Both the position numbers and the translations under genes were made by a program. 64,000 bases of DNA from assembly GCA_002439165.1 (NCBI GenBank), contig DJTE01000011.1, forward strand, positions 87,297 through 151,296, written 5' to 3'. Source of the DNA: Chryseobacterium indologenes. GTDB lineage: Bacteria > Bacteroidota > Bacteroidia > Flavobacteriales > Weeksellaceae. The notes under the pieces were generated by a model that did no database searches, was not told the DNA's origin, and saw nothing but the letters and a program-made list of their open reading frames with translations. Below are positions 4,410 to 60,905 of this stretch, one piece after another; the first letter of the stretch is position 1, and every line of letters starts with the position of its first letter.

Positions 4410-5656
4410 TAACGAAATTCTGTGATCGTTTTTTCAATGATTTTTACGCATTCTAAAAGCTGTTCTTCAGTAATTACCAATGGTGGTGCAAGCCTGATGA
4501 TGTTTCCGTGGGTAGGCTTGGCCAGAAGACCGTTTTCTTTTAACTGAAGGCAAAGGTTCCATGCAGTGGAACTCTCCGGAGTATCGTTAATCAGAATAGC
4601 ATTCAGAAGACCTTTTCCTCTTACTTTGGTGATAAGGTCGTTTTTTTCGATGATCTTTTCGATCTCTGCTCTGAAGACCTGCCCCAGATGTTCAGCTCTT
4701 TCTGACAGTTTTTCATCAGCTACTACGTCTAAAGCAGCCACAGCCACAGCGCAGGCAATAGGATTTCCTCCGAAAGTGGAACCGTGCTGCCCCGGTTTAA
4801 TAACATTCATGATATTGTCGTTGGCCAATACTGCAGATACAGGATACATTCCTCCTGAAAGGGCTTTCCCTAAAATAAGAATATCAGGCTGTACATTTTC
4901 GTGATGACAGGCGATCAGTTTTCCGGTTCTTGCTATTCCGGTCTGAACTTCGTCTGCAATGAAAAGTACGTTGTATTTTTTACATAATTCAGAAGCGTTT
5001 TTCAGGAAGTTCTCATCAGGAACATAAACTCCTGCTTCTCCCTGGATAGGTTCAACCAGGAAAGCCGCGATATTTCCAGCCTCTCTGCTTAAGACGTCTT
5101 CCAAAGCAGCTGTATCATTATAAGGGATTTTAATAAATCCAGGGGTGAAAGGACCGTAGTTCCGGTTGGCATCGGGATCATTGGAGAAAGAAACAATAGT
5201 GGTGGTTCTTCCGTGGAAATTATTTTCACAGACAATAATCTTCGCGGCATTCTCAGAGATACCTTTTACCTCGTAGCTCCATTTTCTGGCTAATTTCACA
5301 GCGGTTTCCACTGCTTCAGCTCCGGAATTCATAGGAAGAACCTTGTCAAACCCAAACAGGGTGGTGATCTTCTGTTCATACTCTCCCAGTTTAGAATTGT
5401 AAAAAGCTCTTGAAGTTAACGCCAGTTTCTGTGCCTGGTCTACCAGCGCTCCTACAATTTTGGGGTGAGAGTGTCCCTGGTTCACAGCAGAATATGCTGA
5501 AAGAAAATCATAATATTTCTTGCCTTCCACATCCCATACAAAAACGCCTTCTCCGCGGTCAAGAACTACGGGAAGAGGGTGGTAGTTGTGCGCTCCGTGT
5601 TTGTCTTCAAGGTCAATAAAATACTGTGAGTTTTTTGTTGTTTCTGCTGTTGACAT
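4409..5656 (-). CDS. rocD: ornithine--oxo-acid aminotransferase (class III PLP aminotransferase)
   Basis: 415 aa with [49 protein letters not shown] and [15 protein letters not shown]...LGKALSGG (PLP lysine region), as I recall for OAT. Confidence 0.85.
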
Positions 5657-8133: not shown

Positions 8134-9489
8134 TTAGTGATTATCATATTTTCTATCCATTACAAAATCTTCCATGAATTTTGTCGTATAGTTTCCTGCA
8201 AGATAATCTTCGTTATCCATCAGTTGTCTGTGGAAAGGAATGGTTGTTTTTACTCCTTCAATATAGAATTCCTCAAGAGCACGTCTCATTTTGGCAATCG
8301 CTTCTTCACGGGTCTGAGCCGTAGTGATCAGCTTGGCGATCATAGAGTCGTAGTTGGATGGAATGGTATATCCTGAATAAACGTGAGTATCCACTCTGAT
8401 CCCGTGTCCGCCGGGAATATTTAATCCTGTGATCTTTCCGGGAGACGGTCTGAAATCAGCATAAGGATCTTCCGCGTTGATTCTGCACTCAATGGAATGT
8501 AATTTAGGATAATAGTTGATTCCTGAAATAGGAGTTCCCGCAGCAAGAAGGATCTGTTCCCTGATCAGGTCATAGTCAATTACCTGTTCAGTAATAGGGT
8601 GTTCTACCTGGATTCTTGTATTCATTTCCATGAAATAGAAATTTCTGTGCTTGTCTACAAGGAACTCGATAGTACCTACCCCTTCGTATCCGATGAATTC
8701 AGCTGCTTTTACAGCAGCCTCGCCCATTTTCTCACGAAGCTCATCTGTCATGAAAGGAGAAGGTGTTTCTTCCGTTAATTTCTGGTTTCTTCTCTGTACA
8801 GAACAGTCTCTTTCAGAAAGGTGGCAGGCTTTACCGTATTGGTCTCCCGCAACCTGGATCTCGATATGTCTTGGCTCTTCGATCAGTTTTTCCATATACA
8901 TACCTCCGTTTCCGAAGGCTGCTACGGCTTCCTGAATAGCGGACTCCCAGTGGTCTTTAAGGTCTTCAGCCTTCCAGACTGCTCTCATTCCTTTACCTCC
9001 ACCACCTGCGGTAGCTTTGATCATGACAGGGTATCCTGTTTCTTCAGCAATTTTTACTGCGTGCTCATAGGATTCAATCAACCCGTCAGAACCCGGTACA
9101 CAAGGTACACCGGCAGCTTTCATCGTTGCTTTGGCATTGGCCTTGTCACCCATTTTTTCGATCTGCTCAGGAGAAGCACCAATAAACTTAATGTTGTTTC
9201 TCTCACAGATTCTGGAGAAGTTGGCATTTTCAGATAAGAATCCGTAGCCTGGGTGAATAGCGTCAGCATTGGTAATTTCCGCTGCTGCAATAATGTTAGG
9301 GATTTTAAGGTATGAGTCTTTGCTCATCGCAGGGCCAATACAAACCGCTTCATCAGCAAATCTCACGTGAAGGCTGTCTTTATCCGCAGTAGAGTACACC
9401 GCAACGGTTTTGATCCCCATTTCTTTACAAGTACGTAAAATACGCATTGCAATTTCGCCACGATTGGCGATTAATATTTTTTTGAACAT
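8134..9489 (-). CDS. accC: acetyl-CoA carboxylase, biotin carboxylase subunit
   Basis: [26 protein letters not shown]..., ATP-grasp motifs, 451 aa, located directly downstream of accB. Confidence 0.95.
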
Positions 9490-9583
9490 CTCTCCGAAAT
9501 TTTAAATTATAAATTTTGAATTTTAAATTATTTTAAATGAAAAAAGTTTCACCTAAAATTTATAATCTTTAATCTAAAATTCC

Positions 9584-10069
9584 TTAAGAAGGATCTACTA
9601 AGAATAATGGCTGGTCATATTCTACCGGAGTAGCATCATCTACCAGGATCTTAACGATCTTACCGCTGATCTCAGATTCGATCTGGTTGAATAATTTCAT
9701 TGCTTCGATTACGCAAACCGTTTTTCCGATGGAAACTTCATCTCCTACATTTACGAATACATCTTTATCCGGGGATGGCTTTCTGTAGAAAGTACCGATC
9801 ATTGGAGACTTGATCGCTACATATTTGCTGTCATCAGAAGCTGCCTCTGCTTTTTCAGCCGGAGCTGCTGCCGGAGTAGCTGCCGCCGGTGCAGGTGCTG
9901 CTACTGCCTGAGGAGCGGTGTGGTAAACAGCAGGCTGTGCATATACTGCGTCGCTTCCCGCTAATGGAGTTTTAATAGTGATTTCGAAATCTTTAGTCTT
10001 GTATTTTACTTCCGAAACTTCAGCTTTGGATACAAACTTGATAAGATTCTGTATGTCTTTAATGTCCAT
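9584..10069 (-). CDS. accB: acetyl-CoA carboxylase biotin carboxyl carrier protein
   Basis: Ala/Pro-rich linker and the biotinylation motif CVIEAMKLFNQIES. Confidence 0.95.
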   Translation of the reverse strand: MDIKDIQNLIKFVSKAEVSEVKYKTKDFEITIKTPLAGSDAVYAQPAVYHTAPQAVAAPAPAAATPAAAPAEKAEAASDDSKYVAIKSPMIGTFYRKPSPDKDVFVNVGDEVSIGKTVCVIEAMKLFNQIESEISGKIVKILVDDATPVEYDQPLFLVDPS

Positions 10070-46216: not shown

Positions 46217-46291
<75 letters not shown>

Positions 46292-46295
46292 CAAG

Positions 46296-46326
46296 AAAAG
46301 TACACTTTTAGAGTGTACTTTTTTTA
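46296..46326 (+). repeat. hairpin element copy 1 (AAAAGTACAC-loop-GTGTACTTTT); also the tRNA-His terminator
   Basis: 10-bp perfect stem followed by a T-run. The same stem sequence recurs at 49163, 50587 and 58521. Confidence 0.8.
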
Positions 46327-46820
46327 TTTCTATATGCTCGCCAAAACTATTTTACGGTGTTGATTATTTGTTTGGTAATCCATAAGAAAAGCATATTTTT
46401 GCAGCCGTCATAGATTATTATGATAACCGTTGTCTCTAAAAACTAAAACCTGAATTTGAAAACCATGATACCATGAAACTACCACCTGAATTTTATTCTG
46501 TTAATTTATCAGTACTTATTGTTCCTGCAATTTAGAATCAAAACATTCCTCAGAAAAGATACAAGCTGTATAATCATTTTATTTATTTCAGTAATCACCT
46601 ATAAAATGTCTGTGCTAAAGTAGCCGCAGGTGTTCTGTCGGTAATGATACAGTATGCCGTTTAAAAAGACATTTGCCAGTCAAAGTGTGATAAAGCCTGT
46701 ATTTTTTCGTGAATTAATTTGATTTTGGAAAGCCTGCATTTCATATGGAGTTCAGAAACCATTCAAACGAAGCGGAACCGAAAAGCTAAACGAGTAGGAG
46801 AAATATTACGAAACTTAAAC

Positions 46821-49082
46821 ATGAAGAGATTTAAAACCATGAAAAAACTCTACTTTTTATTTTTAATCCTCAGTTCAATTTCTGCATTTGCACAAACGTA
46901 TAGTTATACAACATACAATACTTCCAATTCAGAAATAGGAAGCAACTATATTGCGGATATTGAAACCGATGCCAATGGTTTATTATGGCTGGCGACTTCT
47001 AACGGGATTTCAACTTTTAACGGAACGGCTTTTACCAATTATAATACGGCGAATTCCGGTATTGCATCCAATTCAATTATAAAAATTCAAATTGACGGTT
47101 TAGGCAGAAAATGGATTGCTTCTCAACTCAATGGGATTATTTTGTATAACGGTACAACCTGGACGAATTATACAACTTCCAATTCAGGCTTACCGGCTAA
47201 TGCAATCAATGATATAGCGGTTGACGGGCAGAATAACCTTTGGATTGCAACAGATTCAGGACTTACAAAATTCAACGGGACTGCCTGGACTACTTATACT
47301 TCTGTAAACAACCTGAATTCTGTGGCAACTGACAGTAATAATGGCGTTTGGGTTACCAATGGAGGGGTATTGTATAAATTCAACGGAACTGATTTTGATT
47401 TTGTAGCTCAGGGAACCGAACGTATATTAAGAATTGCCAACAATACAGTGTATCTGAAAGGTTCTGATAGCTTAATTACCTTAACAACAAGCGGAACTAA
47501 CCTTACATTTATCTATCAAAGCACTTCCTGCCTTGCAGGATACAACCCGAAGGCTTTGGATCTTGACACTAACAACAAGGTATGGATTGGCTTTAACGGA
47601 GCAGGTTTACAAAACTTTACTAATTGCACGACCTATACCAGAGAAAATACAAATTCAGGTTTGCCGGATGACTATTTCAGTGCAGTTAAGACAGTATCTT
47701 CAGGGACTATCTGGCTGGGAACATTGCAGCTTGGTTTGACGAAAATGACGCCAGGTGATGTTCAAAACGGCTGTTTTCAAAAAATAAGCGCGGGTAGCTT
47801 ACATAGTGTAGCTATAAAAACTGACGGAACATTATGGGCCTGGGGAAATAATTACTCAGGACAATTAGGAAATGGTACCACAGCTAATTCATCAATCCCG
47901 AAACAAATAGGGACAGGTAATAACTGGAAAGCGATAGCCGGTGGAAGCAATCACACAATTGCTCAAAAAACAGACGGAACACTGTGGGCATGGGGAGCAA
48001 ATTCAGGCCAGTTGGGAAATGGTACAAATACAGATCAGCATACACCGGTTCAGGTGGGAAGTGCTAATGATAATGATTGGAAAACCTTTGACAGTGGAAT
48101 GTATCATACCGTTGCTATAAAAAATAACGGTACATTGTGGGCCTGGGGGCTTAATCCGTATGGACAGTTAGGTACGGGCAACACTACAACCAGTTTGGTA
48201 CCCGTTCAAATAGGAACTGCCAATAACTGGTTAGCTGTTCAGTGCGGACAGGACTTTACCGTTGCCTTGAAAACAGACGGAACACTTTGGGCCTGGGGAA
48301 GCAATACTTACGGTACTGTTGGAGATGCCTCCAATACCAATAGATTAGTACCGACTCAAATTGGAACCGCCAACAATTGGCAGAGTCTTGGTGTAGGAGC
48401 ACTTCATGTTGCAGCATTAAAGACAGACGGAACACTTTGGGCATGGGGATATAATGCGAATGGACAGCTCGGGGACGGAACAACCACAGATAAGAATATT
48501 CCAACACAAATCGGAACCGCTGCTGACTGGCAGAATATTGCATCCGGAGGAAATCACACCCTTGCAATAAAATCCAACGGAACACTCTGGGCCTGGGGAA
48601 GGAATCAATATGGTCAGTTAGGAAACGGACTTACTGCAAATAGTAACGTTCCTGTACAGATAGGCAGTCTTACAACCTGGAAAACCATTGCCGGTGGAAT
48701 ATCACATACTTTTGCCTTAAAAAGCGACGGGACTGTCAGTACATGGGGATTAAATCTTTATGGTCAATTAGGTGACGGCTCTAATGTTGATAAAAAAATA
48801 CCAACAGCTCTTGCCTGTCCGACTTTAGGTGTTGATGATTTTACCATATCAAAGAATACCATAAAAGCTTATCCGAATCCTGTTCATGACAAGCTGATTA
48901 TTTCGTTTGATCAGAAGATTTCCTTTGTATCGGTTTATAATGTATTGGGGCAGGAAGTATTGAATAAAGAGGTGAATGCCAACGAAGGCACAATAGATTT
49001 TTCCGGTTTAGCACCAGGAGTTTATTGGGTTAAAGTAAATTCAAATGATAATACGAAGGCATTAAAAATCATTAAAAAATAA
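46821..49082 (+). CDS. T9SS cargo: two-component-regulator-propeller (Reg_prop-like) repeats + RCC1-like repeats + type-A sorting CTD
   Basis: Signal peptide MKRFKTMKKLYFLFLILSSISAFAQ at the internal ATG 46821. Reg_prop-like units (LWLATSNGISTFNGTAFTNY, LWIATDSGLTKFNGTAWTTY). At least seven RCC1-like units (HSVAIKTDGTLWAWGNNYSGQLGNGT...). CTD is YPNPVHDKLIISF...GVYWVKV. Confidence 0.8.
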   Translation: MKRFKTMKKLYFLFLILSSISAFAQTYSYTTYNTSNSEIGSNYIADIETDANGLLWLATSNGISTFNGTAFTNYNTANSGIASNSIIKIQIDGLGRKWIASQLNGIILYNGTTWTNYTTSNSGLPANAINDIAVDGQNNLWIATDSGLTKFNGTAWTTYTSVNNLNSVATDSNNGVWVTNGGVLYKFNGTDFDFVAQGTERILRIANNTVYLKGSDSLITLTTSGTNLTFIYQSTSCLAGYNPKALDLDTNNKVWIGFNGAGLQNFTNCTTYTRENTNSGLPDDYFSAVKTVSSGTIWLGTLQLGLTKMTPGDVQNGCFQKISAGSLHSVAIKTDGTLWAWGNNYSGQLGNGTTANSSIPKQIGTGNNWKAIAGGSNHTIAQKTDGTLWAWGANSGQLGNGTNTDQHTPVQVGSANDNDWKTFDSGMYHTVAIKNNGTLWAWGLNPYGQLGTGNTTTSLVPVQIGTANNWLAVQCGQDFTVALKTDGTLWAWGSNTYGTVGDASNTNRLVPTQIGTANNWQSLGVGALHVAALKTDGTLWAWGYNANGQLGDGTTTDKNIPTQIGTAADWQNIASGGNHTLAIKSNGTLWAWGRNQYGQLGNGLTANSNVPVQIGSLTTWKTIAGGISHTFALKSDGTVSTWGLNLYGQLGDGSNVDKKIPTALACPTLGVDDFTISKNTIKAYPNPVHDKLIISFDQKISFVSVYNVLGQEVLNKEVNANEGTIDFSGLAPGVYWVKVNSNDNTKALKIIKK

Positions 49083-49162
49083 CTGAAGATATTCATAACA
49101 AAAAATTAGGTCGGTGAATCATCAGGCTGATGCGACCAGATTTTTGAATGTGATTTACCTGG

Positions 49163-49190
49163 AAAAGTACACCGTAAAAAGTGTACTTTT
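49163..49190 (+). repeat. hairpin element copy 2 (terminator-like)
   Basis: AAAAGTACAC-cgtaaaaa-GTGTACTTTT. The downstream flank TTTTTATACCTTGCTTCTCCGAAAAGG resembles the flank of copy 3. Confidence 0.8.
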
Positions 49191-49335
49191 CTTGTTTTTA
49201 TACCTTGCTTCTCCGAAAAGGAAATTGTGTTTTTGATCCTGTTTGTAAATATTAATTGTGTTTATTAATCTTATTCTAGAATATATATGAAAATTATTTA
49301 TAAAAAACATTATATTTGTGAAAACTAATTACACT

Positions 49336-49449
49336 ATGCTAAGGATTGTTAATATTGATGACCATCAGGAAATCAGAAAAAATATACTCAGTTTCATTCC
49401 ATCCGGATTCATTATTTCTAACTGCTTAAAGGAATGTGAAAACCTTTAA
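49336..49449 (+). pseudogene. possible remnant of a response-regulator receiver domain (N-terminal ~37 codons only)
   Basis: MLRIVNIDDHQEIRKNILSFIPSGFIISNCLKECENL-stop resembles the start of NarL/LuxR-type receivers (M.RI.I.DDH..IR). It is truncated and has no downstream continuation. Confidence 0.3.
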
Positions 49450-49692
49450 TGCCATTTAATTTTCTGGAATAATACTTCATTACTTATCAATATCACCTAT
49501 TTTGACCTTACATCAGAACAGGCGGGTAAGTCTTTAAACAGATTTATATAAAATTCCAACGAATTTATTCGTGGCTTCAACAGATATTCATTTGTCAGAA
49601 TTATTATCTGGCTTTCATTTATTATTGCATCATAATTCAAAAGAAAACACATGCATATAAAACTAATAATATTAATTAAAATCAATAAACTC

Positions 49693-50430
49693 ATGAGAAA
49701 ACAATCAATTTTTTTAATTCCGGTTCTTGCCCTGATGCTTCTTTTTACATCTTGTGGAAAAGAGAGTACTCCGGTAGAAATAGGTAAAGAATTCAAAATA
49801 GAGCAAAACCCTATCACTATTGTAAAACTGGAGGAAGGAAAAGTACTGCGTTCATCAAAAGAAGAAAAGGTACAGATAGCACCAAAAGGGAAGAAATATA
49901 TCTATCTGGAGGTGAAAAATCCAAAAAGTGAAATGATCTTTCTGAAAGCTTTTAATAAAGAAAAAGAGCTGAAATCAGAGGACGATCTTCAGTATTTTTC
50001 CCATGATGTGGAAACCGGATTTGAAGATGCTTATTATCTTGTAGATGAAAATACCAGCATTGACAAAATTGTGATCACTACACCTTCTGAGACTGAATAT
50101 GTCGTTATGAATCCAGCGGTAACAAAAAGTAAGCTTTCTATTCCTGAAGATGTTCAGAAGATCATAGATTCTTATAGTGGAGAAAAAGCAATCGGGCTAA
50201 TGGATGGGTTTGCTCCTTATGTTAAAGATGGAAAAAATGTGTACGATGTTGCAAAGCAGGAAGGCCACGTGATTGCAAGTAACATGATGAGTAATAACGC
50301 TGAAGTTGATTACTTTACAGAGGATGGAAAGAAATATATTTTCAATGTGAAAAATATTTTTGGTACAAATGCAAAAGTAACCACCTATTGGGACAACGGT
50401 AAAATAACAAGTATAGAAGTTGTAGAATAA
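49693..50430 (+). CDS. hypothetical lipoprotein
   Basis: Lipobox MRKQSIFLIPVLALMLLFTSCGK at the internal ATG 49693. I recognise no family with confidence. Confidence 0.6.
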   Translation: MRKQSIFLIPVLALMLLFTSCGKESTPVEIGKEFKIEQNPITIVKLEEGKVLRSSKEEKVQIAPKGKKYIYLEVKNPKSEMIFLKAFNKEKELKSEDDLQYFSHDVETGFEDAYYLVDENTSIDKIVITTPSETEYVVMNPAVTKSKLSIPEDVQKIIDSYSGEKAIGLMDGFAPYVKDGKNVYDVAKQEGHVIASNMMSNNAEVDYFTEDGKKYIFNVKNIFGTNAKVTTYWDNGKITSIEVVE

Positions 50431-50586
50431 TAATTTTATAAAATCTGAAAAGATCGGTATAGACAGGTTATTATGGTTGGGATTAAACGCAGCCTCAGCA
50501 GGCCTCCTGCCCGTAAACAGGATATCGTTATAAAAAATATCCGCAAAACAATATGAAGTTTCGGTATCTTACCTGACGGCCATCTG

Positions 50587-50618
50587 AAAAAGTACACTAT
50601 AAAAAAGTGTACTTTTTT
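50587..50618 (+). repeat. hairpin element copy 3 (terminator-like)
   Basis: AAAAAGTACAC-tataaaaaa-GTGTACTTTTTT, with downstream flank ATTTATACTGCCTTGTCCTGAAAAAGC. Confidence 0.8.
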
Positions 50619-50824
50619 ATTTATACTGCCTTGTCCTGAAAAAGCAGAGAACTGAATAAAAAAGCCTCCTGATCTGAATGCCTGCCATTAAAAAAGGTAC
50701 AGGTTTCAACCCTTATGGTACCGGAATTGTCTCTGCAGTCAACAGTTCCTCCTGATATTTTTATTCCGTTTGGACCGAATTAAGTATATTTGATGGTTAG
50801 TCAATATTTCTTTTAAAACTGATC

Positions 50825-52672
50825 ATGAAATTCAGAAATGATATTTCCTTTCTCCGGGCACTGTCAGTAGTTGCTGTACTATTATATCATTTTAAATTTT
50901 CTTTTTTTAGAGGAGGGTTTATCGGGGTTGACATTTTCTTTGTTATCTCAGGCTATTTAATGACGCGGATCATTCTGTCCGGGCTCTCAGATAATAACTT
51001 CTCTCTTTCTGATTTTTATAAGAAAAGATTGATGAGAATATTTCCTGCACTGCTGGCCATGATTACGTTTTTTGGTATTCTGATCTATTTTTGTATCCCA
51101 ACCCAATGGCTAATCTATACAAAACAATGTTTTGCAAGCAGCCTTTTCTTTTCCAATATTGCATTTTATTACTGGGATGCAGGCTATTTCAGAGGCTCTC
51201 AGCAGCTCAATTTTCTGCTGCACACCTGGTCACTGTCTGTGGAGTGGCAGTTTTATATGGTGTATCCGGTGATGTTGATGCTTGTTCGCAAAACTTATAT
51301 CAATACCCGGAAGGTATTTAACGGTTTCTTTATTATGGGAATTTGCCTGTCTATAGGGCTGATGCTTTTTCATTATTTATTCAGTGCCACCTATTCTTTC
51401 TATATGCTGGATACAAGAGCCTGGGAAATGATGTCCGGAGGTCTTGTTTTTCTGTTCAGAGACAGGATCAGGGGAAAAAGTACACAGGTAAAAAAGAGGC
51501 TTTTTTATGTATCGTTCGCGATCCTTGTCTTCTTTCTCGTTTTTGCGGATGAACATTCCGTAAGATGGTGGCCGTTTGTAACAACTATGTTGCCGGTGGG
51601 GTGTACGGCTCTGATTTTATGGTTACAGCCTGACCTGAAGATTTTCAGTAACAGAATAATTAAATATACAGGAGATATTTCCTATTCACTATATCTGTGG
51701 CACTGGCCGCTGTATGTTTTCAGCTTGTTTTTCGGACTGAACGAAAGCTTTATCTATAAAATGGCATTCATTGTGCTGTCTGTATTTTTTGCCGCTATAT
51801 CTTACCATTGCATTGAAAAGCGGGAGTATAGGAACTATAAATTTACTTTATGGGCTGCTGTAATCCTTTTTTTACTGTCTTATGGTGTTTCAAAGCTGAA
51901 TCCCCAATACTTATTGGATAGAAAAACGGCTAATCTTGCTTATGCAGCAGTGTATTACAAAGATAGCAAAGAAGTTCGGCGGCAGTTCAGGCGGGAAACT
52001 CAGCATCTGAGAGATGTTCAGCCTTTCAGTGAATATAATTTGAATACGCTGAAAATTAATCCTGACAAAAAAAATATCATTTTATTGGGAGACAGCCACG
52101 CAGGAATGTTCTCACAAACCATGCACGATATTCTGAATAAAGATAAATACCACCTGATTCAGGTTACGGGTGATGCTACCTATCCGATGGCTGATGCAGA
52201 AGGAGGATATTCCGGACCCAAAGAACTTTTTAATTACTTTTTTAAAGAATACTTCCCTGAAAACTATCAAAAGATTGATCTTGTTATTATCAATGCCAAT
52301 TACGATGCCTATGAGAAAAATGATCTGGCAGAGAAGATCGGTTTTAATGAAGATTATTTTAAAAAATATAATATTCCGGTTGTTTATCTGGGGCAGACAG
52401 AAAATTACGGCATCGACTTTCCTACCCATTTCTATCTGAAGAACAGATTTAATACTGAACCAGCCAATAGCCAGTCACTGAGAGATAAAGTACGGCAAAC
52501 CAATCGATATTTAATGGAAAGGCTTGGAAACCGGTACATCAGTCTCCTTGACTGTAAGATTACCAGAGTGAGTAAAGAAGGAATTCCTTATATGTACGAT
52601 ATGAACCATCTTACTTATTACGGGACCCGGCAATATCAGGAATTCATCCTGGAATCACTGCCCTTAAAATAA
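50825..52672 (+). CDS. acyltransferase family 3 fused to a C-terminal SGNH domain (OafA/YrhL-like O-acetyltransferase)
   Basis: AT3 N-terminus FLRALSVVAVLLYHF...GVDIFFVISGYL, about 10 TM helices, then an SGNH block I-like ILLGDSHA. Confidence 0.8.
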   Translation: MKFRNDISFLRALSVVAVLLYHFKFSFFRGGFIGVDIFFVISGYLMTRIILSGLSDNNFSLSDFYKKRLMRIFPALLAMITFFGILIYFCIPTQWLIYTKQCFASSLFFSNIAFYYWDAGYFRGSQQLNFLLHTWSLSVEWQFYMVYPVMLMLVRKTYINTRKVFNGFFIMGICLSIGLMLFHYLFSATYSFYMLDTRAWEMMSGGLVFLFRDRIRGKSTQVKKRLFYVSFAILVFFLVFADEHSVRWWPFVTTMLPVGCTALILWLQPDLKIFSNRIIKYTGDISYSLYLWHWPLYVFSLFFGLNESFIYKMAFIVLSVFFAAISYHCIEKREYRNYKFTLWAAVILFLLSYGVSKLNPQYLLDRKTANLAYAAVYYKDSKEVRRQFRRETQHLRDVQPFSEYNLNTLKINPDKKNIILLGDSHAGMFSQTMHDILNKDKYHLIQVTGDATYPMADAEGGYSGPKELFNYFFKEYFPENYQKIDLVIINANYDAYEKNDLAEKIGFNEDYFKKYNIPVVYLGQTENYGIDFPTHFYLKNRFNTEPANSQSLRDKVRQTNRYLMERLGNRYISLLDCKITRVSKEGIPYMYDMNHLTYYGTRQYQEFILESLPLK

Positions 52673-52987
52673 TTATGGGTGATACCATCAGGTATGATGC
52701 CGGGGATATCTGAAAATAATGAAACTTATCCGGCTGTTTTTAAGATGATAATAATCTGATTTTCATATTTATTTGCCAGTTTTTATATTGTAGAAATTAT
52801 TTTAAATCATGATAAACAGTCAAAGCTCTTAAATCATATGGCTTTTTCATTTTTATTTCCTTAAAAATAAAAGATTTAAATAATGTTTTTTTTAATTCGG
52901 AAAAATGCTCTTACAGGCTATACAATAGCGGAATGAAGGTACCACAGTGAAAAATTTCCCTATATTTAGTCCACACTAACTTCAAAT

Positions 52988-53422
52988 ATGGAAATAAAGG
53001 TCACAGTAAAGCAATTGGGTAAAAAACACCCTGTTCTTTCGGAACAGAAACTTGAAATAGAGTATACAGACAATACTATTACGCTGGAAAGGCTGTTAAA
53101 GCTGATCGTTCAGCAGCAGGTGGAAGCATTCAATGCAAAATCATTTGAACTGGAAGACGAAGACTATGCTAAAATCCCCACAGACAATTATCTGAATATC
53201 CTTACCGATACAGGAAAAGCAGGATTCGGAAGTATCTACAATCAGAAAAAGGCAGATCTGGCAAAAGCTCAGGAAAATGCCATTCAGGCTTTTGAAGACG
53301 GGCTGTTTGCCGTATTTTATAATGATGAACAACTTGAAAACCTCACCCAAATCATCAATCTGGGCCTGGAGCATTCCTTTACTTTCATCAGGCTTACCTT
53401 CCTGGCGGGAAGCTATTGGTAG
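52988..53422 (+). CDS. hypothetical 144-aa protein, first gene of the candidate system operon
   Basis: Clean ORF ending 27 nt before the giant ORF on the same strand. It has no signal peptide or TM segment and no motif I recognise. Confidence 0.6.
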   Translation: MEIKVTVKQLGKKHPVLSEQKLEIEYTDNTITLERLLKLIVQQQVEAFNAKSFELEDEDYAKIPTDNYLNILTDTGKAGFGSIYNQKKADLAKAQENAIQAFEDGLFAVFYNDEQLENLTQIINLGLEHSFTFIRLTFLAGSYW

Positions 53423-53449
53423 AAAAATCACACTAAGCAACAAATATAA

Positions 53450-56400
53450 ATGGAAATTACAGAAAAACTAAAATCAAAGGCTCTCGTCAGCAATTATTAC
53501 GAAAAAGTAAAAAAAGACCTCACAGCACTGGCAGAAGGCAATATTTCAGCACGTGTCTTCCAGGATAAGCCTGTACTTAAAAAAGAGGTAGCAGAGACGG
53601 CTCTGCTGCTGAAAGGGAAGGCCAATCATTACCAGCAGCTTACTTTAGGCTCCAAAGAGGCCGAAAAATTAAAAGATTACATCAAACCGGACATCTGGGA
53701 TGATAAAGATTATTACGAACTGCTCGTTTATTACTTTGGACCTTATGCTGATCTGATAAAGTATGCCTGGAACAAAATGGCTTACAAAATGTATCAGGCA
53801 GGATACTACCGCCGTTCATTCCGGGCACCGCATAACGAGCGTTATCTGTTGCTCAATCAGGTGAACCTTTTGCGGGAGCTTGTAAATTTCCCGGTAATCT
53901 ATAATTACAGCAGCGGTAATCAGTATTTTGATCTTTCACTGGAAGAACAGATCATTTACGATCACGCAATAGCCAATAATTCATCCCAGTTTTATGTATG
54001 GTCGGCAGCCATTGATACAGGAAATACAGCCGTCTACAAGTTAATTGAGGATATTATTTTCAATAAACATACAGAAGGAAAAGTATCCAGAAACATTATA
54101 AAGGCTCTGTTGAACAGTGAACAGAAGCACTGCTGGGAGCTCGTTGAAAAACTGTTGCTGGCAGCCCAGAGACAGGAAGGTCTCCGGCAGACCATACTGG
54201 AAGCGCTGGATGAAACCAGTATAGGAGCTCTTCAGTATATGGTTCACGTGATTCTTGAACACAAGCTCACCCGTTTTTCTTCCGTTGTGAGGGCCATAGA
54301 TACCTGGACAGGATTGGGATGGGATGCGGAAAAAGAATCTGTGGTGAAAAATATAGTCTCGCTGGCAGATACTTACTTCAGCAATCCCGAACAGATTCCT
54401 GCTGCCATAAAAAGCAAAAACAATAACGAGGTCTACATGGCACTTTGGGCACAGGCCGTCTGGGATGTGGAAAAAACAGTCCCTTACCTGCACCAGCTCT
54501 TTGATAAAGGAAATACGGAAAAAAAATGTCTGGCGGTAAAGTTTGCGGTGGAAACCGGAGATCCTTATATCCAGATGCCGCTGTTCTATAAAGCAATACA
54601 GGAGGACGATCTGCAGGTGCTGGCATTTGTGGGACCTTCTTTATCCTTATTATTAAGTGTCAATACCGACTCAAAATTCTATATCAATAATGCAGATTAT
54701 CCGGATTTTTTTGAAAAACTCCATGCATTAACCCAAAAGATAGACATAAAGGAAAAAAAATTCGAGGGGAAGATATTCTCATGGCTTAATGCTACTTTTA
54801 ATAAGAATAATTTCTATTCTTCGATGTTCTATCTGGTAGGAGAAGATGAAAGTAAACTGGATCTGGTGCTTTCTTATTTCGACCAGTTTGAACTTTCATT
54901 GCGGGAACAGCTGACGAGGGTACTTTTAGGTGACTTTTACTGCTATTCATTCTCTTACGGAATAGGAAAAAAGAAAAAGGCTGTTACTCCCTTCCAGAAA
55001 GAATTTGCTTTCAGAATTATAAAAGACAGGGGAGAATCTCTGATTGCTTCAGGAATCAATGTACTCCTTCAGAATTCCCTGAATAAAGAAGAAGTCATGA
55101 CTTTCTTCGATATGTTTAAAAGAAAAGGAGGGACGCTCCGTAAAAAACTGATCGAGCTCGTTATTCAGCAGGAGGATGAAACAGTGGTTCCGTTTGTGGA
55201 TGAACTGATGACCAAAGGTGATGTGGAGCAGAGAACAGCTTCTCTGGACCTCATGCTTCAGCTTCAAAAGAACAGAAGAGTGTCGGCCCGGATCACAGAA
55301 TGGACCAAAATATATTCTGAAAGGCCAAAGATCTCCGAAAGAGAACAGAACCTTCTGGAGCAGCTTAATCCTTCCGGAAATCAACAGCAGCTTTCCCCTG
55401 AAAATGGCTTCGGGTTCTATGATCCTAAAGTTATTTCTGCGTTCGGGCTGCCGGAAGTAAAAGCAGATTCCGTATATGCAAAAGCGGTTAAAAAAGAGAA
55501 ATACGGATTCACACAGCCATTAAGCCGGATAAAGGCGGAACTGAAAAAGCTGAATGACCTCTACCTGAAACATAAAGACTATGAGTACGAATTTGAAAAC
55601 TGGGATGGTGCTATGCAGAAACTGCTGCTGGGAAATAGTTTCGTACAGATTAAAAGGAATACCGAAGGTTTTACGGGCGCGCAGTTGACAGAAAACTATC
55701 CTTTGCATGAAGTATGGGAGCAGTGGTATAAAGATTCGGGGCTTGAGCCTAGAGATCTTTTCCTGATGACCTTTGCAGAAAGCTGCGACCATAAAAAATT
55801 CAGGGATTTTCTTGACAATTATGTGTTTTATTGTAGAGATGTGCTGCCGAATCCTAAGAAAGGAGGTTATTTCTGGGATAACCCTATTAAATATATTCTG
55901 GATTCGCTGCAGCATAAATTTGTGTTTGAAGAAAAAACAGACTTCCTGCTGGACATCTGCAGTACATTATTTGCGAATCTTCCGGAAGAAATTATCAATC
56001 ATAAGGCAAAACAAAACGATTACTATTACAGATACGACGGAAACGGCTGGCAGCAGACAGGCTTTTTCAATCTGTTCCTGGATGCGGTTCCGTTCCGGAA
56101 AATTACAGACGAACAGCTGATTAAGCTATGGAATTTATACCGTTGGATGCAGTTCAACGGACTGCCGGAAAATGTAAAGCATACCGTCCCTGATTTCTAC
56201 TTATTCTGTAAAGCTTATGAGCTGAAGGTAATCACCAAAGACGAGTTGTACGAAGGGATTTTCACCGGAGATTCTGTCATAAGAAACCTCACCACTGTCA
56301 AATTCTATCAGAACAGCGAAAAGCTGTTGGAAATCTTCCCTTTCCTGAAACCTGTTATTACAGAAATACAGAATAAATTCCTTGATGTGGAACTTATCCG

Positions 56401-58492
56401 TGGCGATGCCAATACTGCCGTTTCCCACTTTGTACAGGAGTTCAGGGCGATATACGGAGCAGAAAGGTTTGCACAGATACTGAAAGGGCTGGGTAAATCC
56501 GGATTGTATGCCAACTACATATACAGTTATGGCAATGAAAGCATGACCAGGCAAAAGTTATTTTCTTACCTGCTTTCCCAGTGCTATCCTCTGGAAACGG
56601 ATACCCAGAAATCTTTCAACGAAATAATGAAAAAGGAAAAGATCACAGAACTCCGCCTGATACAGGCAGCTGTGTATGCTCCGCAGTGGCAGAAATTCAT
56701 CAGCAGCTATTTGGGCTGGAAAGGGTTGGATTCTGCGATCTGGTGGATGCACGCCCATACCAAAACCGGGGCCTATCAGGAACAGAATTCGGAACTGGAA
56801 AGTGAGGCGGCTAAATATTCATCGGTAGATATTCAGGAGTTTAAAGACGGAGCTGTGGATAAAGAATGGTTTACCAAAGCTTATAAAGAGCTGGGGAAAG
56901 CCCGCTGGGAAATGCTTTACGAATCGGCCAAATATATTTCAGACGGTAACGGGCACCGCCGTGCAAGACTGTATTCAGATACCCTTACCGGAAGCTTAAA
57001 GATCAAAGAGGTAACGGCAAAGGTCAAAGATAAAAGAGATCAGGATTTTCTCCGGGTATACGGCCTTGTTCCGCTAAGCAAAACCAATCCGGAGAAAGAT
57101 GTACTGAGCCGGTACGAATACATACAGCAGTTTAAAAAGGAAAGCCGTGAATTTGGCTCTATGAAACAGGCCAGTGAAGCTTTGGCGGTAAGAGTTGCCT
57201 TAGAAAACCTGGCAAGAAATGCTGGCTATCCTGATCCGATCCGTCTGACCTGGGCTATGGAAACCAGACAGATTCAGAATCTGCTGTCAAAAGAAACCCA
57301 GGTAACCGTAGATGGCGTAACCGTAGGTTTAATCATTGAAACAGACGGAAAAGCTGAACTTGTGGTATTCAGAGATGATAAACAGCTGAAATCTATTCCT
57401 CCGAAAATTAAAAAGGATAAGGCAGTGATAGAATTGGGGAACTACCGTAAAATCATGCGTGAGCAGTGGACCCGTTCCAGGAAAGGACTGGAAGAAGCCA
57501 TGATCAGGGGGGATGAATTCCTTTTTGCTGAAATTCAGAACCTGTTTGAACATCCCATTATTGTAAAACACCTGGAAAAGCTGGTATTTATTTCCAATGA
57601 CGGTAAAATCGGATTTTTTCATGATGGAAACCTGGTGAGTTCTCATGGTGAAATTCAGGAACTGAACAGAGAAAATACACTGCGTATTGCCCATTGTGTA
57701 GATCTGCATCAGAATTCTGTATGGAGCGATTATCAGCATTACTGTTTTGCAGAAAAGCTGATCCAGCCGTTCAAACAGATCTTCAGGGAATTGTATGTGC
57801 CGACACCGGATGAACTGCAGGAGAAATCAGTATCACGCCGTTATGCCGGGCATCAGATCCAGCCGAAGCAGACTTTAGCTCTTCTGAAAACAAGAGGCTG
57901 GAAAGTAGATCATGAAGAAGGGCTGCAGAAGGTTTATCACAAAGAAGGCTTCCAGGTGAAACTTTATGCGATGGCAGACTGGTTCTCGCCGGCAGATATA
58001 GAAAGTCCTACGCTGGAAACCATAGAATTCCATTCGCTGAAAACGTATAAGAATATTCCTTTTGAAGAAATCAATCCGAGGCTGTTCTCGGAAGTCATGC
58101 GTGATGTGGATCTGGTGGTTTCAGTAGCGCATGTAGGAGGGGTAGATCCTGAAGCCAGCCATTCATCCGTTGAAATGAGAGCTGTGCTGATGAAAGAAAC
58201 AGCCCGCCTGTTTAAACTGGATAATATAAAAATAGAAGGTTCACATGTATTGGTGAAAGGCCAGATGGCGGAATACAGTGTGCATTTAGGAAGTGCTGTT
58301 GTTCATCAGACTCCGGGGAGGTATTTATCAATTCTTCCGGTACATTCCCAGCACAGGGGAAGATTATTCCTGCCTTTTGCTGATGATGATCCGAAATCTG
58401 CGGAAGTCCTGTCTAAGGTGTTACTGCTGGCTAAAGACAATGAAATACAGGACCCTACCATACTTTCCCAGATTAAGAGGGAGTTTGTGTAA
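53450..58492 (+). CDS. 1,680-aa cytoplasmic protein: helical-repeat (HEAT/ARM-like) N-terminal ~1,100 aa + DUF4132 (MolR/YehI-like) C-terminal region
   Basis: Uninterrupted 5-kb ORF with no signal peptide, TM segment or Walker A. The C-terminal signatures HPIIVKHLEKLVF..., LIQPFKQIFRELY and LFSEVMRDVDLVVSVAHVGG match my recollection of the DUF4132 family. This is not verified by a search. Confidence 0.6.
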   Translation: MEITEKLKSKALVSNYYEKVKKDLTALAEGNISARVFQDKPVLKKEVAETALLLKGKANHYQQLTLGSKEAEKLKDYIKPDIWDDKDYYELLVYYFGPYADLIKYAWNKMAYKMYQAGYYRRSFRAPHNERYLLLNQVNLLRELVNFPVIYNYSSGNQYFDLSLEEQIIYDHAIANNSSQFYVWSAAIDTGNTAVYKLIEDIIFNKHTEGKVSRNIIKALLNSEQKHCWELVEKLLLAAQRQEGLRQTILEALDETSIGALQYMVHVILEHKLTRFSSVVRAIDTWTGLGWDAEKESVVKNIVSLADTYFSNPEQIPAAIKSKNNNEVYMALWAQAVWDVEKTVPYLHQLFDKGNTEKKCLAVKFAVETGDPYIQMPLFYKAIQEDDLQVLAFVGPSLSLLLSVNTDSKFYINNADYPDFFEKLHALTQKIDIKEKKFEGKIFSWLNATFNKNNFYSSMFYLVGEDESKLDLVLSYFDQFELSLREQLTRVLLGDFYCYSFSYGIGKKKKAVTPFQKEFAFRIIKDRGESLIASGINVLLQNSLNKEEVMTFFDMFKRKGGTLRKKLIELVIQQEDETVVPFVDELMTKGDVEQRTASLDLMLQLQKNRRVSARITEWTKIYSERPKISEREQNLLEQLNPSGNQQQLSPENGFGFYDPKVISAFGLPEVKADSVYAKAVKKEKYGFTQPLSRIKAELKKLNDLYLKHKDYEYEFENWDGAMQKLLLGNSFVQIKRNTEGFTGAQLTENYPLHEVWEQWYKDSGLEPRDLFLMTFAESCDHKKFRDFLDNYVFYCRDVLPNPKKGGYFWDNPIKYILDSLQHKFVFEEKTDFLLDICSTLFANLPEEIINHKAKQNDYYYRYDGNGWQQTGFFNLFLDAVPFRKITDEQLIKLWNLYRWMQFNGLPENVKHTVPDFYLFCKAYELKVITKDELYEGIFTGDSVIRNLTTVKFYQNSEKLLEIFPFLKPVITEIQNKFLDVELIRGDANTAVSHFVQEFRAIYGAERFAQILKGLGKSGLYANYIYSYGNESMTRQKLFSYLLSQCYPLETDTQKSFNEIMKKEKITELRLIQAAVYAPQWQKFISSYLGWKGLDSAIWWMHAHTKTGAYQEQNSELESEAAKYSSVDIQEFKDGAVDKEWFTKAYKELGKARWEMLYESAKYISDGNGHRRARLYSDTLTGSLKIKEVTAKVKDKRDQDFLRVYGLVPLSKTNPEKDVLSRYEYIQQFKKESREFGSMKQASEALAVRVALENLARNAGYPDPIRLTWAMETRQIQNLLSKETQVTVDGVTVGLIIETDGKAELVVFRDDKQLKSIPPKIKKDKAVIELGNYRKIMREQWTRSRKGLEEAMIRGDEFLFAEIQNLFEHPIIVKHLEKLVFISNDGKIGFFHDGNLVSSHGEIQELNRENTLRIAHCVDLHQNSVWSDYQHYCFAEKLIQPFKQIFRELYVPTPDELQEKSVSRRYAGHQIQPKQTLALLKTRGWKVDHEEGLQKVYHKEGFQVKLYAMADWFSPADIESPTLETIEFHSLKTYKNIPFEEINPRLFSEVMRDVDLVVSVAHVGGVDPEASHSSVEMRAVLMKETARLFKLDNIKIEGSHVLVKGQMAEYSVHLGSAVVHQTPGRYLSILPVHSQHRGRLFLPFADDDPKSAEVLSKVLLLAKDNEIQDPTILSQIKREFV

Positions 58493-58520: not shown

Positions 58521-58551
58521 AAAAAGGTACACTTTCAGCGGTGTACCTTTT
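58521..58551 (+). repeat. hairpin element copy 4 (variant AAAAGGTACAC-loop-GTGTACCTTTT); terminator of the giant gene
   Basis: 11-bp stem with a compensated A-to-G / T-to-C change relative to copies 1-3, followed by a T-run. Confidence 0.75.
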
Positions 58552-58835: not shown

Positions 58836-59822
58836 ATGGGCATATTCGATTTTATAAGAAATGAACTTATAGAGGTTATTGAATGGGTAGACAACACTAC
58901 CGATACGGTATTATGGAAATTCCAGGATGAAGGTAATAATATAAAGAACGGTGCAAAACTTACCGTACGTGAAAGCCAGGCTGCCGTTCTGATGAATGAA
59001 GGTGAATTTGGAGATGTCTACACTCCGGGACTTCATACGCTTACCACGAATAATATGCCGGTGATCACTACTTTGGAATCCTGGAAATATGGTTTTAATT
59101 CTCCGTTTAAAGTAGATGTTTATTTCATCAGTACCAAACAGTTTACCAATCTAAAGTGGGGAACTTCATCTCCGGTTATTATGAGAGATGCCGAACTGGG
59201 GCAGATCCGTTTAAAATCGTTCGGGAATTTTGCGATAAAAATAGATGATCCTAAGAAGTTTATTACCGCATTTTCAGGAACCAATCCTTATGTAAAAGCA
59301 GACCAGGTTGAGGAAACTCTCCGAAATATTATAGCGAGCAAAATGGCGGAAGGTTTTGCCGAAGCGAATGTTACCGTTCTGGATTTAACCGCTCAGTTTT
59401 CTGAGCTGAGCGAAAAGTTAATGCCTGTTTTCCGGAATGAGTTCGATGCTTACGGAATAAGCCTTGAAAAGTTTTTTATAGAGAGTGTTTCTCTTCCTGA
59501 TGAGGTAGAAAAAATGCTCGATAAGAAAACCCAGCTGAACGTACTGAAAGGCAGTCTTGATGATTTTAATAAAATGCAGGCGGGAATTTCTATGGAGAAT
59601 ATGTCTGAAAACAGTGCGGCCGGGAATGTAATGGGAATGGGGGCAGGAATGCTGATGACCCATGTGCTGAACCAGTCCGCTCAAAGTACTCCCGATACCT
59701 CTTCGAAAAATAAAACTGAGCTGATGGATATCCTGAAGCAGTTAAACGATTTAAAAACACAGGGCATTATCACAGAAGAAGAGTTTACCCAAAAAAAGCA
59801 GGAAATACTGAAACAATTATAG
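58836..59822 (+). CDS. SPFH/band-7 superfamily protein of the YdjI (COG4260, 'virion core protein-like') type with a C-terminal SHOCT domain
   Basis: N-terminus MGIFDFIRNELIEVIEWVDNT...LWKF...IKNGAKLTVRESQAAVLMNEG...YGFNSPFKVDVYFISTKQFT resembles YdjI-family proteins (from memory). The C-terminus ELMDILKQLNDLKTQGIITEEEFTQKKQEILKQL is a SHOCT-type motif. Confidence 0.65.
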   Translation: MGIFDFIRNELIEVIEWVDNTTDTVLWKFQDEGNNIKNGAKLTVRESQAAVLMNEGEFGDVYTPGLHTLTTNNMPVITTLESWKYGFNSPFKVDVYFISTKQFTNLKWGTSSPVIMRDAELGQIRLKSFGNFAIKIDDPKKFITAFSGTNPYVKADQVEETLRNIIASKMAEGFAEANVTVLDLTAQFSELSEKLMPVFRNEFDAYGISLEKFFIESVSLPDEVEKMLDKKTQLNVLKGSLDDFNKMQAGISMENMSENSAAGNVMGMGAGMLMTHVLNQSAQSTPDTSSKNKTELMDILKQLNDLKTQGIITEEEFTQKKQEILKQL

Positions 59823-59828
59823 ACTTCT

Positions 59829-60905
59829 ATGGCAAATATAGTGGAGTATCCGTGTCCTAACTGTAATTCGGAGCTCAATTTTGATTCAGAAAGCCAGAGT
59901 CTTAAATGTTTACACTGCAGCACACTTATTCCTATTGCAGAAAGTAATGAGTTGATTACTGAGCAGCGGATCAATGCATTTTTAGATGCTTCAAAACTGC
60001 CGGTTGTTGAGCTGAAAGAATTTAGTTTCCGTTGCTCAAAATGCGGAAAAGACAATATATGTACGGAGAATATCGCTTTCTTCGAGTGCCGGCACTGCAA
60101 AAATAATATCATTAATACAGACGGGTATCGGTCAAAGCCTATCACTCCGAAATCTATTCTTCCTTTTGAGATTTCCAGGGAAGAAGCATCGGGTATTTTT
60201 CAGGGCTGGATCGGCAAAGGATTCTGGAATGATTCTGCCCTGAAGAAACAGGCTCTTAACGATAAAATGGACGGATGCTATGTGCCCTTCTGGACTCTGG
60301 ATTCTCATACGGAAAGTGCTTGGTCCGGAGAAGCCGGAATTTATTATTATGTAGATATAAAGTATAAAGACCATAACGGACACGAAAAGGTAAAACGGGA
60401 GAGGAGAACACGATGGCATTACAAGTCGGGAAATACGGTTCAGTTTTTTAATGATATGCTTCTGTCGGGATCAAAGGAATTTGAACAGAAAACTATGGAG
60501 GAAATTTACCCTTATGACTTAAATAAGCTTAAACCTTTTAATGCTCAATATTTATTGGGATGGAGTGCCAAAGCTTATGATGGTGATCTGACCCAGTCCT
60601 ATAATTATTTTCATCAGTATATAGATGGTAAGATCCGGGAAATATGTATCAGCCTTTTAAAGGAGGATACTTACAGAGGATTATCGGTGCAAACCCGCTA
60701 TTATAATGAGACATTTAAACATATGGTTCTGCCGGTATGGCGATGTCATTATCTGTTTAAAGGGAAATCATACTTTTATATGATTAATGGGCAGACCGGT
60801 AAAATTTATGGGAAAAAGCCGCTTTCTGCATTCAAAATAGTTTTTACGGTCATGATGATTCTTGCGATTATTGCTGGACTGATTATCATTGGGCGGCAGA
60901 AATAA
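59829..60905 (+). CDS. double zinc-ribbon protein with a C-terminal TM anchor (YdjG-like)
   Basis: CPNC...CLHC and CSKC...CRHC pairs (two zinc ribbons), then a ~200-aa globular region and the terminal TM helix FKIVFTVMMILAIIAGLIIIG. It starts 6 nt after the SPFH gene stop. Confidence 0.65.
   Translation: MANIVEYPCPNCNSELNFDSESQSLKCLHCSTLIPIAESNELITEQRINAFLDASKLPVVELKEFSFRCSKCGKDNICTENIAFFECRHCKNNIINTDGYRSKPITPKSILPFEISREEASGIFQGWIGKGFWNDSALKKQALNDKMDGCYVPFWTLDSHTESAWSGEAGIYYYVDIKYKDHNGHEKVKRERRTRWHYKSGNTVQFFNDMLLSGSKEFEQKTMEEIYPYDLNKLKPFNAQYLLGWSAKAYDGDLTQSYNYFHQYIDGKIREICISLLKEDTYRGLSVQTRYYNETFKHMVLPVWRCHYLFKGKSYFYMINGQTGKIYGKKPLSAFKIVFTVMMILAIIAGLIIIGRQK

Follow-up and report, generated by a model that had tools for sequence, protein, structure and literature searches.

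A 64,000-nucleotide stretch of a Chryseobacterium indologenes genome (contig DJTE01000011.1, positions 87,297 to 151,296 of the forward strand; hereafter the window) carries a two-gene operon that encodes a 144-residue protein and, directly downstream, a giant protein of 1680 residues. Judged by gene order, shared domains and profile similarity, the pair is orthologous to drA0165-drA0166 of Deinococcus radiodurans, an operon that belongs to the DdrO/IrrE regulon. This is the most informative link to the pair, and it was missed in the earlier note on this DNA, which had been made from the sequence alone. We put at roughly 45% the probability that the pair is a dispensable module of the response to genotoxic or oxidative stress, working as a two-subunit cytoplasmic complex.

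The operon and the domains it encodes are laid out in the window as follows.

52950..52969, plus strand: conserved promoter-like block AAAAATTTcccTATATTTAG, ending 18 nt before the ATG of the small gene
52988..53422, plus strand: small partner gene (open reading frame call), ATG start, 144 aa
53423..53449, plus strand: intergenic spacer of 27 nt, without a terminator
53450..58492, plus strand: giant gene (open reading frame call), ATG start, 1680 aa, 195 kDa, cytoplasmic
53669..57259, plus strand: DUF5724 region, residues 74-1270 (Pfam PF18991, E = 0, 1160 bits, cut-off 25)
57380..57901, plus strand: DUF4132 domain, residues 1311-1484 (Pfam PF13569, E 4.6e-45, 154 bits, cut-off 27)
58169..58474, plus strand: DUF7737 domain, residues 1574-1675 (Pfam PF24879, E 7e-38, 129 bits, cut-off 27)
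58522..58551: terminator-like hairpin AAAAGGTACAC-loop-GTGTACCTTTT that closes the operon, 12-bp stem, dG -15.5 kcal/mol

The two same-strand open reading frames (ORFs) and the 27-nt gap lie exactly where the earlier note had placed them, and the closing hairpin, described there as having an 11-bp stem at 58521-58551, is present with one further base pair; the two genes are one operon. The spacer of 27 nt holds no terminator, which implies that the small and giant genes would be co-transcribed; the spacing is tighter in other lineages, with an overlap or a gap of 1-3 nt (loci L082, L085 and, in Deinococcus, L089). The hairpin stands out against shuffled sequences (z = -3.3) and, with the better T-run on the minus strand, looks bidirectional. 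Upstream, the AAAAATTTcccTATATTTAG block is the sole stretch that 49 Chryseobacterium loci conserve in the 220 bp 5' of the small gene. It is similar to the Bacteroidota -7 box TAnnTTTG, and this known consensus makes it a candidate promoter. Neither a palindromic operator nor a Bacteroidota LexA box was found near the block, and no palindrome is conserved 5' of the pair in the 49 loci.

The association of the two genes was assessed in 80 genome loci that encode relatives of the giant, from Chryseobacterium, Empedobacter, Flavobacterium, Cytophagales, Chitinophaga, Pyrinomonadaceae, Thorsellia and a Gracilibacteria genome. In 77 of these the small gene directly precedes the giant gene. There are three exceptions, two of them at contig edges, and among informative loci the count is 77 of 78. 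Four more distant relatives of the small protein (32-36% identity) also stand directly 5' of a giant gene, with stop and start codons often overlapping; three of the four giants have the confirmed DUF5724-DUF4132-DUF7737 order, and the fourth is cut by a contig end. The suspected co-occurrence of the two genes is thus borne out. Moreover, the identity of small proteins to the window copy co-varies with that of the giants (r = 0.98, 76 loci), and the ratios of nonsynonymous to synonymous substitution rates against the closest relatives are low for both genes (0.05-0.09 for the small gene, 0.04-0.05 for the giant). A third conserved gene was not found around the pair in 22 diverse loci.

The loci with the pair cover at least four phyla (Bacteroidota, Acidobacteriota, Patescibacteria and others), with Deinococcus as a fifth, and the giant is ~50% identical over 1680 aa between phyla. 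The source names of matches to its C-terminal part add Bacillota, Chloroflexota, Cyanobacteriota and Deinococcota, lineages across which the last 450 residues are ~50% identical. Both genes are kept in Candidatus Gracilibacteria bacterium HOT-871 (L075; complete genome, 1.18 Mb), with the giant 50% and the small protein 51% identical to the window copies; the pair, at ~5.5 kb, is a large investment for such a reduced genome of the candidate phyla radiation.

The two proteins

All three Pfam models match the giant above their gathering scores and in order, which makes it, on these profile matches, a full-length protein of the DUF5724-DUF4132-DUF7737 architecture, a distinct one that is already catalogued. 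No match to it was found in NCBIfam, PADLOC or PHROGs. The DUF5724 match spans profile positions 29-1214 of 1214 and includes a conserved patch, LLxAxxxQEGLRQ, at residues 235-247. DUF4132 contains the invariant motifs QPFKQxFRExY and RRYxG and was modelled with a confidence score (pLDDT) around 90, while DUF7737 and the helix that precedes it carry an invariant cluster rich in Asp, His and Ser (R1551, D1552, D1554, S1558, H1561, D1566, H1612, S1615, D1645 and D1647). Among 16 sequences from distant lineages 140 residues of the giant are invariant, none of them Cys. Conservation is highest over residues 1000-1680, and the invariant polar set comprises, besides the two DUF4132 motifs, RDxD, SxAHxGGxD, HLGS and PFxDDDP. 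The model of the last 450 residues has a pLDDT of 86.5 and a predicted template modelling (TM) score of 0.79. Its best, weak Foldseek matches are the RWD domain of Knl1 and Mediator subunits, all with TM-scores below 0.3; the Knl1 match (E 5e-3, TM 0.16/0.26) is not significant and was dropped as evidence. No solved structure was matched by either protein, whether the query was a single sequence or a profile.

Several features that the earlier note had read from the giant agree with these results. It had expected DUF4132 at about residues 1250-1450, close to where Pfam places it, and the two C-terminal peptides it had picked out start at residues 1437 and 1545. A motif scan found no Walker A motif, and the maximum 19-residue Kyte-Doolittle hydropathy is 1.47; the giant therefore has no transmembrane segment, as had been supposed. 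The proposal that the first ~1,100 residues are HEAT/ARM-like fared less well: Pfam finds only DUF5724 there, HEAT, ARM and TPR models have no match in the giant at E <= 1, and comparison of its profile with itself by hhalign gave no internal repeats (best off-diagonal probability 2.3%). The final 50 residues of this region, which were modelled, are helical.

The giant had also been likened to E. coli YehI and MolR. All three are large cytoplasmic proteins with DUF4132 near the C-terminus, and this part of the comparison stands; a likeness over the whole length does not. YehI aligns to the giant only over DUF4132 (residues 1309-1556 against YehI 964-1208, 22% identity, E 9e-8 by BLASTP), lacks DUF5724 and DUF7737, and stops where DUF7737 begins, whereas MolR has a WGR domain, for which the window giant has no Pfam match. 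The E. coli yehF-yehQ cluster includes WGR, MoxR AAA+, DUF5682, VWA and SWIM genes. None of these is present in the window flanks of the pair, in line with the earlier remark that a MoxR or VWA partner is lacking, and VWA, SWIM and DUF5682 partners are also missing from the 25 commonest neighbour families of 21 loci, in which no neighbour gene recurs in more than five. YehK was also considered, but is unrelated to the small protein (hhalign probability 0.1%).

The small protein (144 aa, 16.5 kDa, isoelectric point 4.7, no Cys) has no match in Pfam, NCBIfam, PADLOC or PHROGs, as had been anticipated. Its motifs are KQLGKK, GK(A/V)GFG, AFEDGL and a C-terminal tail, ...RLTFLAGSYW. An exhaustive search gathered a family of 561 clusters at 50% identity, nearly all of them stand-alone proteins of 138-145 aa. 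The AlphaFold2 model (pLDDT 76) has a strand-strand-helix ... strand order, in which residues from about 51 to 90 form a poorly ordered insert, and its top Foldseek matches, although weak (E 0.04-0.2, TM up to 0.59), are all beta-grasp domains: C-domains of staphylococcal superantigen-like proteins, ubiquitin, NEDD8, MoaD and ISG15. A beta-grasp (ubiquitin/MoaD-like) fold therefore seems likely from the model. As in MoaD, ThiS and bacterial ubiquitin-like proteins, a conserved Gly would directly follow the last strand; unlike these, the small protein has an insert of ~40 residues and does not end in GG, except in its Deinococcus forms. Instead, 125 of 150 representatives end in G-[R/S/G]-hydrophobic-[W/F/Y]-COOH, exactly three residues past the conserved Gly. 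Ubiquitin-like systems, moreover, have an E1, E2, JAB or sulfurtransferase partner, whereas the small protein is always paired with a DUF5724 giant. ThiF/E1, E2 and JAB have no Pfam match in the pair and were found neither in the window flanks nor among the 25 commonest neighbour families.

The Deinococcus orthologue and DNA-damage control

A search of a plasmid collection returned Deinococcus megaplasmids as matches to the giant. In D. radiodurans (L089), a 134-aa gene lies 3 nt 5' of a gene for a 1626-aa giant with the same three Pfam domains, so that the two-gene order is that of the window pair. The family profile recovers the Deinococcus small proteins at E 3e-30 (26% identity pairwise, E 6e-10), and the Deinococcus giant is 47.5% identical to the window giant over the C-terminal 450 aa. 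One difference lies at the end of the small protein, which in Deinococcus terminates in ...LAGG-COOH (L089, L090, L092 and L093) rather than in G-S-Y-W. In D. radiodurans (3956-4440 and 9386-9970 of the locus), a gene for the thioredoxin TrxC precedes the small gene and a DUF99/endonuclease-dU gene follows the giant; the genes that flank the pair differ among the four Deinococcus species.

What is known of expression of the pair comes from the work of others in Deinococcus. The drA0165 promoter has a DdrO operator, the radiation/desiccation response motif (RDRM), was positive in both ChIP-seq and RNA-seq, and is de-repressed on depletion of DdrO; the DRA0166-V5 protein increases after mitomycin C treatment only when IrrE is present (PMC8533742). 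In an unconnected study, the product of DR_A0165, termed SEP068184, increased after gamma irradiation and H2O2, was co-immunoprecipitated with many partners, including Trx1, and was noted to have a predicted MoaD-like structure (PMC9650054), independently of the model described here. We found that the RDRM palindrome precedes the small gene by 57-92 bp in D. radiodurans, D. ficus and D. psychrotolerans; in Deinococcus sp. D7000, whose small gene has a shorter annotated N-terminus, it lies within ~200 bp 5' of that gene. The statements in PMC9650054 that DR_A0165 is Deinococcus-specific and has no RDRM are contradicted by the 561-cluster family, by the operator found and by PMC8533742. The Chryseobacterium promoter differs from that of Deinococcus in having no recognisable damage operator.

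Other DUF4132 proteins are also members of DNA-damage regulons. E. coli molR is on the list of LexA targets (PMC6590174), a parallel to the damage control of the pair in Deinococcus, and a CTG-N10-CAG box can be seen 5' of yehF; DR2173, another DUF4132 protein of D. radiodurans, is in the DdrO regulon (PMC8533742). The pair does not appear in the text of a survey of the Deinococcus radiation/desiccation response regulon (PMC5552922), and a paper on E. coli ST131 names DUF4132 only as a transposon insertion site.

The slot beside tRNA-His in Chryseobacterium

In about 45 Chryseobacterium species the pair occupies one site, between tRNA-His (beside a PIG-L gene) and a DUF3276/ABC-transporter gene pair. 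We collected ten further Chryseobacterium genomes with the same backbone by means of an identical DUF3276 protein and judged the presence of the pair at the slot. It is absent from nine of the ten, and the tenth carries a frameshifted copy; their distance from the window matches that of species with the pair. The slot and its contents are as follows.

46218..46292, plus strand: tRNA-His, the sole tRNA in the window
46218..46318, plus strand: tRNA-His with its trailing GTACAC...GTGTAC hairpin, the left edge of the variable slot
Ten same-backbone genomes, four: slot empty
Ten same-backbone genomes, three: slot with an FG-GAP protein
Ten same-backbone genomes, two: slot with an FG-GAP protein and a beta-helix protein of the type IX secretion system (T9SS)
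Ten same-backbone genomes, one: slot with the pair, the giant frameshifted near residue 204
46300-46318: AAAAGTACAC-loop-GTGTACTTTTT hairpin after tRNA-His
49167-49186: the same hairpin after the RCC1/T9SS gene
50592-50612: the same hairpin after the gene for a 259-aa protein
58527-58546: the same hairpin after the giant gene

In the frameshifted copy (L098, 10471-15979) the giant is split into ORFs of 257 and 1452 aa, through decay or sequencing error. The earlier description of a cassette-like region beside tRNA-His is borne out by these data: the pair comes and goes between species at this locus rather than standing in invariant core synteny, and its accessory status survives. The pair is dispensable and repeatedly absent, and is strongly constrained where it is kept. 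Within the genus its divergence tracks that of the backbone, and its GC content exceeds that of the flanks only slightly. Because the pair is constrained where kept and diverges with the backbone, long residence and repeated loss fit better than recent transfer.

Besides the pair, the window slot holds an RCC1/T9SS protein, the 259-aa protein, an AT3-SGNH acyltransferase and a pair made up of an SPFH protein and a 358-aa protein; the neighbours of the pair are the acyltransferase, the SPFH protein, DUF3276 and the ABC transporter. This cargo (46719-52672 and 58836-60905 in the window; L094-L103 in the ten genomes) varies by species among RCC1-repeat T9SS, FG-GAP, beta-helix T9SS, AT3-SGNH and SPFH-SHOCT plus 358-aa proteins, and the SPFH and 358-aa pair was seen in just one (L008) of 80 other loci. 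The AAAAGTACAC-loop-GTGTACTTTTT hairpin occurs four times in the 64-kb window, all within the slot, where 0.01 occurrences would be expected by chance. In other Chryseobacterium loci it likewise follows tRNA-His, also follows the giant in ~14, and is found almost nowhere else in the 20-kb loci. Such direct repeats of the tRNA terminator could mediate gain and loss of cassettes. No integrase gene was found near the slot hairpins. On the DUF3276/ABC-transporter side, ~6-9 kb from the slot, nine of the ten genomes (L094-L096 and L098-L103; not L097) have a Ku - LigD_N - LigD operon for non-homologous end joining, in which LigD is the ligase/primase-polymerase.

A variable site next to a tRNA gene invites the reading, raised in the earlier note, that the pair is an anti-phage defence or abortive infection system, in which the giant, on sensing infection or DNA damage, would bring about arrest of growth or death, and the small protein would be a partner or an antitoxin-like regulator. 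Besides the variation at the slot, its patchy distribution over phyla fits such a role, as does the increased H2O2 survival of a D. radiodurans strain deleted for DR_A0165 (PMC9650054), which suggests that the module is costly under stress. Its neighbourhoods include a few defence-type proteins (PtuA, a type I restriction enzyme, AbiEi and SoFic among 101 neighbours) and, adjoining the pair in L087, an immunity-type SUKH gene. However, the neighbours are heterogeneous: most are genes for housekeeping or transport, and no defence partner recurs among them. Neither protein has a match at E <= 1 in PADLOC, in the 2023 release of its database, which predates later systems, or any match in PHROGs; relatives are absent from 50,697 phage genomes, and among 2.9 million viral contigs just seven loci were found. 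The plasmid records, 13 in number, are without exception non-mobilizable megaplasmids or chromids, and the giant has neither a recognisable effector domain nor an NTPase. The ~50% identity between phyla, together with substitution ratios of ~0.05, is unusual for defence sensors, and divergence that follows the backbone within the genus fits vertical descent with loss. A defence function, for which searches, neighbours and rate of evolution gave no positive support, thus seems unlikely.

A proposed stress-response complex and its alternatives

Our preferred reading remains a dispensable factor in the response to genotoxic or oxidative stress. The small and giant proteins would most likely be the two subunits of one cytoplasmic complex. 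The giant would probably be the working subunit, by virtue of its best-conserved C-terminal 450 residues, in which the invariant Asp/His/Ser cluster may be a metal-dependent catalytic or ligand-binding site. The small protein would probably act on the giant as an adaptor or regulator, docking through its C-terminal G-x-hydrophobic-aromatic-COOH tail and its conserved loops. The module would be under strong purifying selection where present, and repeatedly lost. DdrO binding, induction by mitomycin C, gamma irradiation and H2O2, and a deletion phenotype have been shown by others, in Deinococcus only; we infer that the operon may be stress-induced in Chryseobacterium as well.

Several observations weigh against this proposal. 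The third exception to the pairing is a real one, and the sole one: Thorsellia anophelis (L067, 7300-13133) has a full-length giant (1718 aa, 50% identity) with no adjacent small gene, ~680 bp of non-coding DNA 5' of it, and no small partner within 21 kb. Foldseek comparison of the C-terminal model of the giant with PDB and BFVD gave nothing below E 1e-3, a profile search against PDB gave no match, and no known catalytic fold was assigned to the giant. The phenotype of the DR_A0165 deletion is mild, and higher H2O2 survival is the 'wrong' direction for a protective factor (PMC9650054). DR_A0166 was not found in an incomplete list of the SEP068184 co-immunoprecipitation partners of that paper, from an experiment made without genotoxic stress; on both counts the negative is uninformative on this point. 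Of the LexA motifs described in Bacteroidota, GGA-N5-TCC and CTAA-N5-TTAG (PMC8565304), neither stands consistently 5' of the pair in the window and 75 loci, and a Cheo box was not found near the pair in L087.

The giant might instead be a non-enzymatic scaffold or hub, a structural platform that assembles or sequesters proteins under stress with the beta-grasp protein as one adaptor. Its very large size, without an NTPase motif, an invariant Cys or a match to an enzyme fold, is consistent with this, and the top Foldseek matches of its C-terminus are interaction modules, although with TM-scores too low (below 0.3) to carry weight. Beta-grasp domains are common adaptors. The many co-immunoprecipitation partners of DR_A0165, Trx1 among them, point the same way (PMC9650054). 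On the other hand, the invariant polar cluster (RDxD, SxAHxGGxD, HLGS and PFxDDDP) resembles an active or metal site more than an interaction surface, and there is no conserved third gene to encode a client. We regard a pure scaffold as distinctly unlikely.

A more speculative version of the stress reading, which we rate as a long shot, is that the pair is damage-triggered machinery of an unrecognised kind, spread horizontally over at least five phyla including the 1.18-Mb Gracilibacteria genome. The giant might tag proteins with, or use as a carrier, a ubiquitin-like protein without the Cys chemistry of E1 and E2 enzymes, or the pair might be an effector of the DdrO cell-fate decision after severe DNA damage.

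There is only a slim chance that the small protein is a new type of ubiquitin-like modifier or carrier, activated or transferred via its C-terminal Gly with the giant as the activating or ligating enzyme. The beta-grasp matches of its model, which include ubiquitin, NEDD8 and MoaD and none of which is significant, suggest this, as do the MoaD-like structure noted independently (PMC9650054), the nearly invariant Gly after the last strand and the exact ...LAGG-COOH ends of the Deinococcus versions. The top Foldseek match of the giant C-terminus, Knl1 (E 5e-3), is to an E2-related RWD domain, but at TM 0.16/0.26 is not significant. The prevailing tail (125 of 150) is G-x-hydrophobic-aromatic and not di-glycine, which speaks for docking rather than for a pro-peptide that is cleaved; the giant has no invariant Cys, and E1, E2 and JAB partners are missing from the pair and from the commonest neighbour families. 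A role in molybdate or molybdopterin regulation, suggested by the historical name of the E. coli paralogue MolR, by the MoaD-like fold of the small protein and by modA ~1.8 kb downstream on the opposite strand in D. radiodurans, is very improbable, since no mod, moa or moe gene is near the pair in the window or in three other Deinococcus loci or recurs in 21 diverse loci, only one domain is common to the giant and MolR, and the Deinococcus operon does not share its regulation with molybdenum genes (PMC8533742).

With regard to what was known, the gene families were already catalogued as domains of unknown function (DUFs), and the orthologous Deinococcus operon had been noted. What is new is the near-universal pairing of the giant with a large, unnamed family of small proteins, likely of beta-grasp fold; the conserved, docking-type tail of these proteins; the presence/absence pattern at the tRNA-His slot; and the connection of two separate Deinococcus studies to a family spread over many phyla. 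The 'species-specific small peptide' SEP068184 of Deinococcus is the small partner of the giant. DUF5724, DUF4132 and DUF7737 are widespread domains for which the experimental handles have been scattered, namely E. coli molR in an SOS list and the two Deinococcus papers. The role of DUF4132 in the DNA-damage response can now be addressed with a two-protein unit, a candidate active site, a putative docking tail and natural Chryseobacterium variants, and the pair thus provides a well-defined entry point into DUF4132 biology.

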